DNA from: Oligoflexia bacterium | GTDB lineage: Bacteria; Bdellovibrionota; UBA1018 | Reading direction: 5' to 3' | NCBI GenBank assembly: GCA_963758495.1 | Contig: CAVWVI010000003.1 | Location: 384,001 to 448,000 of the forward strand | Length of the DNA stretch: 64,000 nucleotides | Part shown: positions 16,148-22,367 of the stretch, piece after piece | Position numbering within the stretch: position 1 is the first letter of the stretch | Layout of the letters: every line of letters starts with the position of its first letter | The notes under the pieces: model-generated | What the model saw: only the letters and a program-made list of their open reading frames with translations | What the model was told of the DNA's origin: nothing | Database searches by the model: none | Program-made: the position numbers and the translations under genes

Positions 16148-17194
16148 TTACTTATTATTATTTTTTAACCCTTCTAGTAGGTTCACACTCATCTCCATCC
16201 TGCTTCCGGTGAGGGTTCCAATTCCGATAAGGATGGGTTCTAAAATATCAAGCGGCACCGCCCTTACAAAATCTAGACGATCAAGTTGCCCATCATATAA
16301 CTTTGCACTAAGTGCTAGTAAATTATCCATTTCCCCATGTGTTAAATACTGATATAAAAATCCTGCAATTGGAGAGTTTTTAAAATCGAATCCAGATGCT
16401 TGGGACCGTCCATATTTTAATGTTTCAAATACAATCAAGTTAGTAGGTTTCTCTTTTTTGGCAGTTCTTAAACGAGATGGTGGTGCTTTCAGGAATTCTT
16501 CGATTGGGACGCTATTGACTTGAGGTATGCTCACTTCTTCACCTAAAAAGAACAAATAAGGTGCATCTCCGCCGCTTAATTGTGCAAAAGTTTCTAGAAT
16601 AGCAATAGATACTAATTTTATATTGATGTACTCAACAGCATTCCTTAAGTTGATCTGAATCTGTTGATGCATAGCCTCTAAGTCTGATTCTCTAGGAAAA
16701 TCGTTCCATGAATGAACAACATTTTGGTATTTCAATGTTGATAAAAATAACTTTACTCGCTGTATTGCCAAGCGATATTGACCTACGGTAAAAAGTGAAT
16801 TTCTAAAGATCGGGTTATTTTCTAAAATAAGAGTCCATGTCTGAGAAATAAATAATCCAAAATCTTCATTAAAAAAACCGGATACATCTTGATTTGAAAA
16901 CGCTACTGCACGTTTGATATTTGTTTCAATTTTATCATTTGGAACCTGGAGTGTGAAGTCATTAATTAATTGCTGAGTTCTCTGGAAAAGAATATCAAAA
17001 GGCGTTTCTCCCTGTTCATTTGCAGCACGAAAAGGAATGGTAGATTCTATACAAGTCGTAAATTGAATTTTATCCCAAAGAGTGAACTGTATACATTCTT
17101 TGAGAATTCTAGCGGCAGCTACTGTGCTTAAAAACTCGTTTAACCCATTAAATGGATGTAAAACTGTGCCCTCTTTAAAGTTAAATACTTTCGC
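16148..17194 (-). pseudogene. 5'-truncated conserved hypothetical gene interrupted by IS110
   Basis: Plausible protein from about AKVFNF onward (PFNGLNEFLS, IESTIPFR, GGDAP); the N-terminal part of the ORF-track translation is antisense IS110 sequence; junction approximate. Confidence 0.55.
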
Positions 17195-17215
17195 TCTTAG
17201 CGACAATGTAAGAAA

Positions 17216-17364
17216 GCAACGTCCCCTCAGAGCTGCGGTACTAAGACCGTAAGCTTTGTGGGCTAATCGCTCAATGGGCCTCAATCTGGGGAGTGGTATA
17301 ATAGAAACTGCTTCGTAAAGTAGTTTCAACCAGTCTAACCAGCGTGCCAAGGAGGGAACGTTGT
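17216..17364 (+). ncRNA. Candidate IS110 bridge-RNA-like structured left end
   Basis: Closing stem GCAACGTCCCCTC (17216) / GAGGGAACGTTGT (17352); inner hairpin GAAACTGCTT-CGTA-AAGTAGTTTC (17304-17327); GCGGT/ACCGT stem near 17235-17250. Confidence 0.45.
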
Positions 17365-17365
17365 T

Positions 17366-18038
17366 ATGAACTATTATATTGGAATGGATGCACATGCAGC
17401 AACAACAACCGTCGCAGTCGTGGATGAAAAAGGGAAAAATATTGATCGCCAAAATTTTGCCACTACAGAGGCAAATTTACTTGGATTCATATGAAAGATT
17501 AAGGGGAAGAAGTTCCTGACATTTGAAGAAATGCATCTGGCTCAGTGGTTGTATATCATACTAAAAAAAGAGGTAGATCACCTGGTAGTTTGTAATCCTG
17601 TTTATGTAGCTGAAAAACAGGGAACAAAAACAGACTTTAGAGATGCTCTACAATTAGCTCAGGAACTTAGAACGGGGCATTTGGTTGCCGTTTATCATGA
17701 TGAAAGTCACTGGATCCAGCTGAGGGTTCTAGTGTACGGCTATTTGGCCTTAGTAGAAGAAATCATTCGAACTAAGAATAGACTGAAGGCAGTATTTAGA
17801 TCCGAGGCGATCGATACATCACAAACAGATTTTTATGAAAAAACGAGAGACCGATTAAAAGAACTGTCTCATGAGAGTGCACGGTTTGTTGCTGAGAATC
17901 TTTATTGGCAGATTGATGGTTTAGAGAAAAGAAAACGAGAATACCGTGAGGTTCTTCAGCGTAATTCTAAAAAATATAAACCTATTAAAAATCTCATGAC
18001 TATTCCCGGGATTAGTACGGTTCGAGCAAGTATTATCA
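17366..18038 (+). pseudogene. IS110 transposase, nonsense-mutated and truncated
   Basis: AAGGAGG SD then MNYYIGMDAHAATTTVAVVDEKG; in-frame TGA at 17492-17494; continues FEE, KTDFRDA, KNRL and TIPGIS before IS1380 sequence begins. Confidence 0.88.
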
Positions 18039-18195
18039 CCCTAAATTGGTAATTCAAATATTAATATATAAAGTATTTTCATTTTGTCATGCGTAAATTT
18101 GTACTTTATAGAATTAAATTTGTCCACTAAAATAGTGGAGTTTGAAATAAAATTCATTTACATGAGATCAAACTTTAGTTAAGACCTCCTGCATT

Positions 18196-19659: not shown

Positions 19660-19735
19660 ATATTTTTCCTCTGGCATTGGGCCCACAAAAGCACTTTCGA
19701 TTGTGATTAGTCCTGCATGATCTTTGACAACTTCA

Positions 19736-21711
19736 CCCTAAATTGGTAATTCAAATATTAATATATAAAGTATTTTCATTTTGTCATGCGTAAATTTGTA
19801 CTTTATAGAATTAAATTTGTCCACTAAAATAGTGGAGTTTGAAATAAAATTCATTTACATGAGATCAAACTTTAGTTAAGACCTCCTGCATTATGATCAT
19901 CCACAACAAGATGGGCCGTCCAAAAAAAGATCCTAATCGAACCGATATACGATTGGGGGAGCTCAAGTATAAGGGAGAAGATGACTCACTTACGGCGGCA
20001 GCAGGGCTTCCCATTATGTTGGAGCTGTTTTCAAGGTCACCCGCATTTACTCAATTTGTAAAGTGCCTCCCTTCCAGAGCTGGAAATAATACTTACGGAA
20101 GTGAAAAAATCGCATTACTTATTTGGCTAGGATTCTTGAGAGGATTCGATTGTATCGAGGATTTGGCTGATTTTGTATGGGATCCAGGTGTCATGCGAAA
20201 GCTGGGAGAGATTCCGAAACCTAGAGCTATTGGAAATTATTTGAGAGATTTTTCAGTAGAAAATAATGAAGCTATGAACGCATTCTTAAGACATCAGGCA
20301 AACCTGGCCAGAAGGCGGTTATTTAGCGACACTCCATTGGTGATTGACATAGATAGTACTTCACATGTTCAAAGAGGAAGTACCATTGAAGGGCTCGCTT
20401 ATAATTATAAAAACGAATGGTGCTTAGATAGCCTAGTAGCGTTTGATCAATTAGGATTTTGTCATGGAATGAAGCTCAGACCAGGCAGTACGTTTTCCTC
20501 TCAGGGATCCGCAGATTTCATTCGTGAAATATTTCCTGTATTGCCTGTGGATGAAGTGCAAAGAAAAAAAGAAAAAAGTAGACGCTTTTTTCGAGCAGAC
20601 TCAGCATTCTGCGAACAAGACTCCATTCATGCCTGCCTCGAGAGAGGGGTTTTATTTACAATCAGTGCACATGGCCGAACAGGATGGAAAGACCGAGTAA
20701 AAGCAGGAGCGATTCAAGATTGGATACCCTGGGAATATTCTCAAAAGGAAATAGAAGAAGCACAGGAGGCTGGCATTTCTTTACCTAAAGTAGATTTAGG
20801 TTCTTTTGTTTACCAGCCCGGATGGAGTGAGAATTTGCGTTTCTACCATGTCGTCAAAAGAACTTGGGTTACAAAGAAAACTAAACTCCCTAAGAAGAAA
20901 CAAACACAAGTTGAGAGTCTGGATGAAGAAGAGACTTTTGTTGAAGGTGAATGGCTCTATTATGGAGTTTTAACTAATTGGAATCTCTTTGAACATTCGC
21001 TTCAGGAAATCATGATACATCACCACCAGAGGGGTCATGCGGAAAATTTTATAAAAGAGGGAAAAAATTCTTATGACCTTAAGCACTTTCCATGTAAACC
21101 ATTGAAAGCAAATCACGCTTATGGCCTTTTAGGTTTAGTCGCGCACAATTTCATGAGAACGCTTGCTCTTCTCGATTCACCGAGCAAGCCCCACTTTGCT
21201 AAAGCAATTAGAAAAAAATTCATTTTTATCCCAGGAAAACTAGTTAACAGCGCTAAACAATGGTGGATGAAAATTCCAAGTCACTGGAAGAAGGAGGTGG
21301 ACCGACTTCTACACGCCTGGGAAAGGGCGTTTCTTCTTTCCCCAAATGCCAGGTAGATATTTTTCCTCTGGCATTGGGCCCACAAAAGCACTTTCGATTG
21401 TGATTAGTCCTGCATGATCTTTGACAACTTCACGTTGCTTGGATTGAGCCGGACCTTCGCTAACGGATAGCGCCGATGTTTTACCAACTAAATAAAGCTA
21501 CACACTCAGAGGCGCTAAGCACGCCCTAAAAAATGCTGCAGGGGACCTGCAGGGAGCACTCCCTTGTCTAATTTCACTGCCTAGAGGCGGAGGTGATGCC
21601 AAATTCTGGGCGCACGAAGGCCCTTCCATCCCCATCGAGGGGAACAGAAACAAAAATTTCTTCTAAAAATGACCTGTTTTTAAAGTGTCTGATTCAAAAT
21701 GCGGATTTGGG
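19736..21711 (+). mobile_element. IS1380-family element copy B, complete (1976 bp), nested in copy A
   Basis: Flanked by direct repeat ACTTCA at 19730-19735 and 21712-21717 (ACTTCAC if the element starts one base later); no differences from copy A seen by eye. Confidence 0.9.
19893..21356 (+). CDS. IS1380-family transposase, identical protein to 18196..19659
   Basis: Same 487-aa translation, offset 1697 bp. Confidence 0.92.
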   Translation: MIIHNKMGRPKKDPNRTDIRLGELKYKGEDDSLTAAAGLPIMLELFSRSPAFTQFVKCLPSRAGNNTYGSEKIALLIWLGFLRGFDCIEDLADFVWDPGVMRKLGEIPKPRAIGNYLRDFSVENNEAMNAFLRHQANLARRRLFSDTPLVIDIDSTSHVQRGSTIEGLAYNYKNEWCLDSLVAFDQLGFCHGMKLRPGSTFSSQGSADFIREIFPVLPVDEVQRKKEKSRRFFRADSAFCEQDSIHACLERGVLFTISAHGRTGWKDRVKAGAIQDWIPWEYSQKEIEEAQEAGISLPKVDLGSFVYQPGWSENLRFYHVVKRTWVTKKTKLPKKKQTQVESLDEEETFVEGEWLYYGVLTNWNLFEHSLQEIMIHHHQRGHAENFIKEGKNSYDLKHFPCKPLKANHAYGLLGLVAHNFMRTLALLDSPSKPHFAKAIRKKFIFIPGKLVNSAKQWWMKIPSHWKKEVDRLLHAWERAFLLSPNAR

Positions 21712-22229
21712 ACTTCACGTTGCTTGGATTGAGCCGGACCTTCGCTAACGGATAGCGCCGATGTTTTACCAACTAAATAAAGCTACACACTCAGAGGCGC
21801 TAAGCACGCCCTAAAAAATGCTGCAGGGGACCTGCAGGGAGCACTCCCTTGTCTAATTTCACTGCCTAGAGGCGGAGGTGATGCCAAATTCTGGGCGCAC
21901 GAAGGCCCTTCCATCCCCATCGAGGGGAACAGAAACAAAAATTTCTTCTAAAAATGACCTGTTTTTAAAGTGTCTGATTCAAAATGCGGATTTGGGTTTT
22001 ACCAACTAAATAAAGCTACACACTCAGAGGCGCTAAGCACGCCCTAAAAAATGCTGCAGGGGACCTGCAGGGAGCACTCCCTTGTCTAATTTCACTGCCT
22101 AGAGGCGGAGGTGATGCCAAATTCTGGGCGCACGAAGGCCCTTCCATCCCCATCGAGGGGAACAGAAACAAAAATTTCTTCTAAAAATGACCTGTTTTTA
22201 AAGTGTCTGATTCAAAATGCGGATTTGGG
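21479..22229 (+). repeat. Three direct copies of the 233-bp IS right-end segment (21479-21711, 21764-21996, 21997-22229)
   Basis: TTTTACCAACTAAATAAAGC...AAATGCGGATTTGGG occurs three times. Confidence 0.95.
21997..22229 (+). mobile_element. IS1380-family copy C, right-end remnant (233 bp)
   Basis: Matches 21479-21711 of copy B and ends in the same GCGGATTTGGG terminus. Confidence 0.85.
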
Positions 22230-22290: not shown

Positions 22291-22367
22291 TGGCGGGAGT
22301 GAAGGGACTCGAACCCTCGACCTTCGCCGTGACAGGGCGACGTTGTAACCAACTCAACTACACCCCC
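22291..22367 (-). tRNA. tRNA-Asp (anticodon GTC), CCA encoded
   Basis: Reverse complement GGGGGTGTAGTTGAGTTGGTTACAACGTCGCCCT-GTC-ACGGCGAAGGTCGAGGGTTCGAGTCCCTTCACTCCCGCCA folds as a 77-nt cloverleaf. Confidence 0.96.

Follow-up and report, generated by a model that had tools for sequence, protein, structure and literature searches.

A pseudoknotted, boxA-bearing 3′ end of IS1380-family elements placed behind tRNA genes as a candidate guide RNA for a Tn5-like transposase

The IS1380 array of the window and its relatives

The window analysed here, a stretch of 64,000 nucleotides from an Oligoflexia bacterium of the phylum Bdellovibrionota (GenBank assembly GCA_963758495.1, contig CAVWVI010000003.1, positions 384,001 to 448,000), carries an array of IS1380-family insertion sequence (IS) elements, whose 3′ non-coding end was described in an earlier note, made from the letters of this DNA, as a chain of hairpins that could form an element-encoded RNA. 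Comparison with homologous elements suggests that this end is a structured RNA which may steer the transposase to the downstream side of tRNA and transfer-messenger RNA (tmRNA) genes. The array consists of two identical transposases of 487 amino acids (aa) with the domain PF13701, two left ends and three right ends (Table 1), so that the self-insertion pattern pointed out earlier is real: copy 2 is nested within the tail of copy 1 and is accompanied by a 6-bp target duplication. The array starts inside a truncated IS110 element and stops 61 bp short of a tRNA-Asp gene, whose 3′ end faces it from the opposite strand. It is unlikely, judging from similar nesting in other sequences (loci L520, L082, L060, L056, L073 and L074; L and G numbers are locus and genome labels, and G000 is the window's own genome), that the stacked right ends are an assembly artefact; the single DNA sequencing run yielded short pieces only, insufficient for judging the array. 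In total five matches to the RNA model are present in G000, and besides the window array there are two further loci, one with its right end 119 bp from tRNA-Gly(ccc) and one, a 44%-identical element, 257 bp from the tmRNA gene.

Between its ends the element, which is 1.7-2.1 kb long, has a single open reading frame (ORF). The AlphaFold2 model of its product (predicted local distance difference test score, pLDDT, 89.5) found Tn5 transposase as the best Foldseek match, with a template modelling (TM) score of 0.48 and E 3e-10, and a search of the PDB with the transposase sequence returned 0 matches. The domain scan and the fold comparison gave DDE families only and no extra nuclease domain (RuvC or HNH). 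A close homologue carries the database name IS1380 family transposase.

Of 401 genomes searched in the phylum, 20 contained relatives of the element; others came from two named Bdellovibrionota metagenome-assembled genomes and from at least 148 metagenome matches, of which 80 were kept. Their database names point to Bdellovibrionales, Bacteriovorax, Silvanigrellales and Oligoflexus, and one relative, known from its protein record, bears the name of a described species, Oligoflexus tunisiensis. The search of plasmids gave no match at 1e-15, and at 1e-3 only distant IS1380 proteins of at most 25% identity appeared among the best 25 of 3272 matches; viral contigs provided 13 distant IS1380 elements, which served as controls. 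In a quick tree of 48 proteins, rooted at the midpoint only, a branch (Shimodaira-Hasegawa-like approximate likelihood ratio test, SH-aLRT, 99) separates the 36 RNA-bearing elements from 12 IS1380 elements that lack the RNA. The comparisons below rest on 86 aligned regions, each from the stop codon to the right repeat, with 79 distinct regions in the motif counts, divided into a main clade (59 regions) and a far clade of 25-33% protein identity (20 regions).

BoxA, the antisense tRNA segment and the double-pseudoknot fold

Across the family the structured 3′ region measures 230-410 nt, and in the alignment of the 86 regions it follows a fixed order 3′ of the stop codon: a boxA motif comes first, then a segment of degenerate antisense tRNA, and finally a core with two pseudoknots. 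The boxA pattern occurs on the plus strand in 66 of the 79 distinct regions, on the reverse strand in 2, and in 1 of 14 control elements. The boxA consensus of Bacillus subtilis and Escherichia coli and its NusB-dependent role are given in PMC13753749; compared with boxA of rrn operons and CRISPR leaders, the motif of the element differs hardly at all from the B. subtilis consensus, and over a 13-nt core it agrees fully with both rrn 16S-23S spacers of G000, yet it precedes a transposon RNA instead, where a role of NusB would be a prediction. A promoter scan found three sites against 4.3 expected, none of them for a separate promoter of the RNA, and the reading of TTGACA within the boxA motif as a −35 box was rejected, since no −10 box comes after it and the letters match the rrn boxA.

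The helices of the core emerged from an unbiased mutual-information scan, in which the top pairs were complementary and formed four helices in tandem topology, that is P1 with pseudoknot 1 (PK1) followed by P2 with pseudoknot 2 (PK2). Over 58 distinct sequences, 82.7% of 1369 cells are paired, as against 32-49% in slid controls; 23 of 24 pairs have changed on both sides, with 299 double changes versus 98.9 in shuffles, and no covariation measure was reached by any of 500 shuffles (0/500). On the plus strand G-U wobbles outnumber A-C mismatches (93 vs 45 cells), and copy 2 of the window retains five of the six pairs of PK2. The far clade shows the same topology in a different sequence: the model R1 does not detect this clade, and the fold was checked separately on nine sequences, with PK1 paired at 96.8% and PK2, picked by hand, in 8/8, one row (L510) having been taken with a shifted range. 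RNAalifold recovered PK2 only, since pseudoknots cannot be drawn by it. Rfam 15 placed no family on the window region or on 17 homologous loci, where it reported only tRNAs and sub-threshold matches. Ribozymes of the hepatitis delta virus (HDV)-like and theta types have a nested double-pseudoknot topology; the helices of the element stand in tandem and gave no Rfam match. Covariation, the plus-strand G-U bias of the core and the plus-strand boxA support an RNA, and the region is very probably a conserved structured element of RNA type.

This supports the earlier proposal of a structured RNA encoded by the element, as a putative transcript, and it was the comparison of 3′ ends among related transposases, with its strong covariation, that provided the main support. 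Every arm pair listed earlier is present (21341-21378, 21458-21472, 21511-21525, 21536-21552, 21551-21564, 21574-21596, 21608-21623, 21629-21643, 21646-21661 and 21664-21682); the 3′ end is indeed GC-rich (0.47, and 0.57 in the core, where the ORF has 0.415 and the 5′ end 0.25), and it holds no ORF of 80 aa or more. Folding of the 371 nt on the plus strand is better than that of shuffled sequence, but modestly so (z −2.16, 1/100 shuffles as good), and the minus strand folds alike (z −2.30, 3/100). The picture of a chain of hairpins is to be revised in part, for the conserved fold consists of two pseudoknots: GGCG/CGCC is the conserved P1 and AGGGA/TCCCT a part of P2, whereas CTGCAGG/CCTGCAG and CTGCC/GGCGG overlap strands used by other helices of the family and do not belong to that fold, and the AT-rich pairs near the 3′ end have no comparative support. 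CGCTA/TAGCG falls at the position expected for the anticodon arm in an antisense tRNA. The hairpin at the stop codon is present; as a feature of the family it is weak, with a median z of −1.3 and 27% of the 79 regions below −2.

The antisense tRNA segment, which together with the tRNA targeting is absent from the earlier note, lies between boxA and P1 and is the reverse complement of parts of a tRNA in tRNA order: the CCA end, the T-loop and, with the anticodon arm skipped, the D-arm and the 5′ acceptor strand. The antisense T-arm is significant in 50/59 main-clade and 0/20 far-clade regions and the antisense D-arm in 16/59 and 10/20, respectively; TGG, the match to the CCA end, stands upstream in 39/54. 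The segment carries U at places where some tRNAs have A and others G (position 57 in 37/50, position 59 in 46/50 and position 9 in 26/26), at position 57 even though G is found there in 50/76 tRNAs, and this fits an RNA that is required to pair with many tRNAs. Neither ARAGORN nor Rfam called a tRNA in the region, and the T-stem of a cloverleaf is not kept.

Table 1. Features of the IS1380 array and its flanks, in window positions
Feature	Position	Strand	Basis or remark
IS110-family element, 5′ part, truncated at the start of the IS1380 array (left flank)	17191..18038	+	PF01548; 99.6% match, as far as the truncation, to the intact copy G000:C3:1437.5-1439.2 kb
Copy 1, left inverted repeat	18039..18052	+	Repeat comparison
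Copy 1, IS1380-family transposase, 487 aa	18196..19659	+	ORF, domain match
Copy 1, start of 3′ non-coding end, broken just past boxA by copy 2	19660..19735	+	Ends in the 6 bp that form the left copy of the target duplication
Copy 2, left inverted repeat	19736..19749	+	Repeat comparison
Copy 2, IS1380-family DDE transposase	19893..21356	+	PF13701 E 2e-28; Tn5-like fold
Stop-codon hairpin, weakly conserved as a feature	21341..21378	+	Own z −1.7; family median −1.3
BoxA-like antitermination motif	21414..21428	+	GATCTTTGACAAC, shared without change by the two rrn 16S-23S spacers of G000
First part of predicted guide: tRNA 3′ half and T-arm in degenerate antisense	21434..21460	+	Family comparison; this copy ungapped p 0.30
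Small hairpin where the anticodon arm is skipped	21458..21472	+	Anticodon arm without guide-target signal
Second part of predicted guide: tRNA D-arm and 5′ acceptor strand in antisense	21474..21507	+	tRNA-Asp rank 1/45, tRNA-Gly(ccc) 9.5/45 in G000
Scaffold pseudoknot 1	21511..21537	+	P1 21511-21514/21522-21525; PK1 about 21518-21521/21534-21537
Scaffold pseudoknot 2	21538..21582	+	P2 21538-21549/21557-21567; PK2 21551-21556/21577-21582; model R1 match 21498-21607
Variable 3′ hairpins and A/T-rich spacer	21583..21697	+	Alignment
Copy 2, right inverted repeat	21698..21711	+	Repeat comparison
Second right end, which is the remainder of copy 1, with 6-bp duplication, guide, scaffold and inverted repeat	21712..21996	+	100% identical to 21427-21711; R1 match 21783-21892
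Third, outermost right end (partial guide, scaffold, inverted repeat; left part missing)	21997..22229	+	R1 match 22016-22125
tRNA-Asp(gtc), presumed target gene, 3′ end toward the element at 61 bp	22291..22367	-	tRNA gene calls

Several smaller features accompany these parts. In one subgroup (L009, L027, L030, L036, L037, L128, L132) boxA and the guide are separated by an additional conserved module of about 45 nt. In L008, L013 and others an A-run followed by a G+C hairpin precedes the right repeat, an arrangement that would act as a minus-strand terminator against tRNA read-through into the element; the window has weaker candidates of this kind. In sequence the stop-codon hairpin has arms similar to the two inverted repeats of the element itself, left and right, and a possible reading is that of an internal binding site or a scar. 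A TCACC...GGTGA palindrome stands 5′ of the transposase gene in 34/49 main-clade elements, with a related hairpin at about 19819-19838 of the window, and is possibly an operator or an internal site for the transposase.

Placement behind tRNA genes and the fit of guide to target

In the first set of sequences a tRNA or tmRNA gene was found in 37/86 distinct right flanks and in 0/49 left flanks. The final set of 105 right ends has such a gene at 51 of them, and all genes, 54/54, face the element, at distances of 1-1060 bp from gene to right end (median 60). For ends with at least 380 bp of flank the gene lies within 300 bp in 34/69, where chance expectation in G000 is 0.19%, and within 1 kb in 26/47. 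These rates exclude seven right ends from loci that were centred on tRNAs, which had the expected orientation in 7/7. Among the controls, a tRNA or tmRNA gene accompanies IS256 elements in 2/28 cases and IS1380 elements that lack the RNA in 0/23, five of these being short-flanked; a natural control is the multi-copy IS1380 element of G172 (L174, L189, L192, L195), with a 3′ end of only ~25 bp and a tRNA neighbour in 0/4 loci. In a prospective check of G225, which is a single contig, 2/2 copies were adjacent to tRNA genes; the query with a distant protein gave six more tRNA-adjacent loci, both G225 copies included, along with one locus that had no tRNA and two that were truncated. A further prospective check used the eight matches to the RNA model that have no full transposase ORF: one (L138, E 0.008) was discarded as false, and of the remaining seven, five have a facing tRNA gene at 41 bp or less and one a tRNA remnant. 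Neighbours of the Leu, Ser and Tyr types, tRNAs with a different D-arm, are absent (0/42 near neighbours, vs 10/45 in G000), to which operon position could contribute. Stacking is seen in another family too, at L520:360-1992, where five right ends in alternating 268/345-bp units lie 61 bp from tRNA-Arg(tct). A duplication of 6 bp, once of 7, flanks 11/47 elements with a confident left end, in addition to that of the window. Taken together, the elements almost certainly target tRNA genes in an oriented manner.

Remnants that lack the transposase and internally deleted copies (L133, L135, L137, L266, L267 and G000:C3:1439218-1439541) keep the RNA core and the right end, most adjoin tRNA genes, and some may be non-autonomous elements. 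By eye, several right ends (L008, L011, L090, L093, L136, L169) lie next to 3′ fragments of tRNA genes, which are attachment-site remnants of integrative elements. Elements of the IS110 family directly adjoin the IS1380 element at two loci of G000 and in another genome (L132), and at C3:1439218 the IS110 right end meets the IS1380 tail at a common GC; the IS110 family may be directed at the tail of IS1380, or else at the same DNA close to tRNA genes.

The antisense segment was compared with its neighbouring gene in two ways. Over 28 sites the segment fits its own neighbour better than the neighbours of others, with 0/20000 permutations as high; the signal is located in the first 26 nt of the tRNA, the 3′ half giving p 0.06 and the anticodon arm none. 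Within genomes, a comparison that takes out host effects and in which each neighbour was ranked among the 23-45 tRNAs of its own genome (sets of up to 30 loci per genome, out of 24-42 matches), the mean rank quantile was 0.19, as opposed to 0.40 with foreign guides (permutation p 0.0013; 14 sites, 11 genomes). In G000 tRNA-Asp ranks 1/45 for the element of the window and tmRNA 1/45 for the second element of the genome; the latter has matches to both ends of tmRNA, which are more than 300 nt apart in the DNA. The seed of one guide fits both of its separate target tRNAs in G000: GTGTAG occurs, among 46 genes of G000, only in the two targeted tRNAs, a seed chosen post hoc and given as illustration only. 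In statistical terms, and with loose specificity, the sequence of the guide appears to track its target.

Proposed mechanism, rival explanations and known systems

From the conserved fold, the boxA motif, the antisense segments, the placement, the orientation, the 6-bp duplications and the better fit to the own neighbour, we infer that the region is transcribed, that its scaffold binds the transposase and that the element is guided, and we consider it probable, with a fair margin for error, that an RNA guide steers the Tn5-like transposase behind tRNA genes by base pairing. Transcription that reads past the end of the transposase gene would produce the RNA, Nus factors recruited by boxA would counter Rho, and the pseudoknot scaffold would bind the transposase. 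The guide would pair with the tRNA-sense strand at the D-arm and the 5′ acceptor strand and, in the main clade, also with the T-loop and the CCA end, the anticodon arm being looped out; the complex tethered in this way would insert 1-250 bp, sometimes up to 1 kb, past the 3′ end of the gene, right end first. As pairing partner the nascent transcript, still attached to the elongating polymerase, would be somewhat more probable than the non-template strand of the unwound DNA, on which, when exposed, an R-loop is possible. The transcript is favoured because the guide is always antisense, because it skips loops and once matches both ends of tmRNA, and because the distance of insertion is loose and always downstream. 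In its fullest form the proposal is that a lone, Cas-free DDE transposase captures with its own RNA the nascent tRNA or tmRNA transcript and inserts just downstream, by means of a guide that can be rewritten; this is put forward tentatively, at slightly less than an even chance.

Repeat visits to one tRNA gene would land in the tail of an earlier copy, which provides the link between the RNA and self-insertion that had been suspected for this array, and recombination between copies in direct repeat would leave stacked right ends and unmatched flanks. Such a course fits the array of the window, the five-end stack at tRNA-Arg and the missing duplications in 36/47 elements, a count to which chimeric assembly may add.

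A number of observations weigh against the guided insertion proposed here. The segment of the window itself is degenerate (ungapped scan p 0.30 and 0.70). Wobble in the outer T-stem favours the minus strand (32 vs 6) while that at inner positions favours the plus strand (18 vs 5), and the T-stem is unconserved on either strand (on the minus strand 19-47/54 paired per position). A full tRNA gene within 300 bp is missing at 35/69 well-flanked ends, there are clean insertions with no tRNA nearby (L072, L079, L097), and of the 11 elements with intact duplication only 4 have a tRNA in the available flank; the duplication is absent in 36/47, and assembly chimeras or later rearrangement affect the set. 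Specificity is loose (L131 rank 11/23, L132 rank 11/30), and L103 lies beside tmRNA without evident match to the tmRNA 5′ end, its contig stopping short of that end. The scaffold, used as control, likewise had slightly low ranks, with a quantile of 0.33 (p 0.014) when G-U pairs were scored and of 0.40 (p 0.10) when they were not, and when G000 orthologues were substituted for the true neighbours the p value weakened to 0.043. Guide and neighbour are direct repeats, so that gene conversion could add to their match; moreover, the sites are related and non-independent, the borders of the guide were set by hand and several scorings were tried.

Some of these points lend themselves to an unlikely, though still serious, alternative, in which a real RNA senses mature tRNA or regulates expression of the transposase in a T-box-like manner, the protein finds tRNA genes alone, via polymerase, terminator or a feature of the DNA, and the match to the neighbour comes from gene conversion. 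In its favour, the guide matches the single-stranded CCA end and the conserved loops common to most tRNAs, and the direct repeats and the loose specificity agree with it as well. However, the RNA lies 3′ of the ORF and not in a leader, RNA and tRNA placement co-occur on one side of a tree branch, the neighbours exclude tRNAs with a different D-arm, the single seed fits both separate target tRNAs of G000, and gene conversion would not yield letters biased towards wobble.

It was also considered that fold and antisense segment work in the form of single-stranded DNA (ssDNA), belonging to a transposition intermediate that pairs with the target, in the manner of IS200/IS605 elements, where DNA guides pair with the target. 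Covariation by itself cannot separate RNA from ssDNA, and the transcript is a predicted one; yet boxA is an RNA signal that matches the boxA of the host rrn operons, and the G-U bias, the Tn5-like double-strand DDE fold and the 6-bp duplications also count against the ssDNA reading, which is very unlikely. Highly improbable, too, is a function of the minus strand as a tRNA mimic in read-through from the tRNA promoter, cut by tRNA-processing nucleases and limiting antisense RNA against the transposase: the geometry yields such read-through, in this copy the minus strand folds equally well and the outer T-stem wobble lies on it, but the T-stem is kept on neither strand, the T-arm part is lost in the far clade, boxA and the scaffold bias are on the plus strand, and the placement and the neighbour-specific match are left unexplained. 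Least probable of all is that insertion is untargeted or follows integrative elements, with mere survival near tRNA genes and an unrelated cis element as the structured end. Integrases or other IS elements in many flanks and the existing off-target copies speak for it; against it are a single orientation in 54/54 cases at the right end only, the low counts beside IS256 (2/28) and other IS1380 elements (0/23), and an antisense tRNA inside the element. The RNA-guided reading is kept as the preferred one.

How does such an element compare with known systems? Judged by its protein and its ends it is a member of the IS1380 family: in common with ISEcp1/ISEc9 it encodes a PF13701 DDE transposase and no other ORF, its inverted repeats are short and imperfect, with terminal C/G and ending in G, and it has a target duplication, which in the family is 4-5 bp according to PMC12116815. 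It differs by the duplication of 6 bp, a variant that does not exclude membership, and by the structured 3′ region of 230-410 nt with boxA, antisense tRNA and oriented placement at tRNA genes.

OMEGA systems (TnpB or IscB with omega-RNA, in IS200/IS605 elements) have a pseudoknotted right-end RNA with scaffold and guide, take the guide from flanking DNA and cut empty donor sites. The element described here has likewise a structured, pseudoknotted right-end RNA with scaffold and guide parts; however, it encodes no RuvC or HNH protein, no Rfam model matches it, and its guide is internal, 5′ of the scaffold, with choice of the insertion site as its predicted role. In IS110/IS1111 elements a DEDD recombinase uses one bridge (seek) RNA of the element that sets the target by base pairing, and one protein with one element-encoded RNA that would set the target is the common ground. 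Here, by contrast, the enzyme is a Tn5-like DDE transposase with inverted repeats and duplications, PF01548 being present only in the neighbouring remnant, and the guide would pair with one strand only, with insertion at a loose distance and not within the match.

CRISPR-associated transposons (CAST) and Tn7-like elements homing to tRNA genes employ TnsC and a TniQ/TnsD or Cas selector, and insert in a narrow window. Insertion in one orientation on the downstream side of a conserved gene, which serves as a safe harbour, is shared with them, whereas the 1.7-2.1 kb element has no Cas, TnsC or TniQ/TnsD and lies at distances of 1-1060 bp. Integrases, whose attB sites are within tRNA genes, share the tRNA and tmRNA loci and a partial tRNA sequence on the element; here insertion takes place outside the gene and duplicates 6 bp, the piece resembling a tRNA lies within the element in degenerate antisense form, and Leu, Ser and Tyr genes are absent among 42 near neighbours.

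In the literature searched, from which subscription journals largely fell outside, no description of an IS1380 RNA or of its tRNA targeting was found. The known RNA-guided mobile elements use Cas complexes with helpers, RuvC/HNH nucleases or DEDD recombinases, and we know of none with a lone Tn5-type DDE transposase. Even if guiding should not hold, an explanation is needed for a structured RNA family that is new, combines boxA with an antisense tRNA and goes together with targeting of tRNA genes in strictly one orientation. By analogy, the element would work like omega-RNA, bridge-RNA and CAST systems, yet it lacks the features by which each of them is recognised; if the proposal is true, it would represent a further independent origin of RNA-guided integration, possibly by recognition of a transcript during its synthesis, in a two-part system of about 2 kb whose targeting would be set by 25-70 nt.

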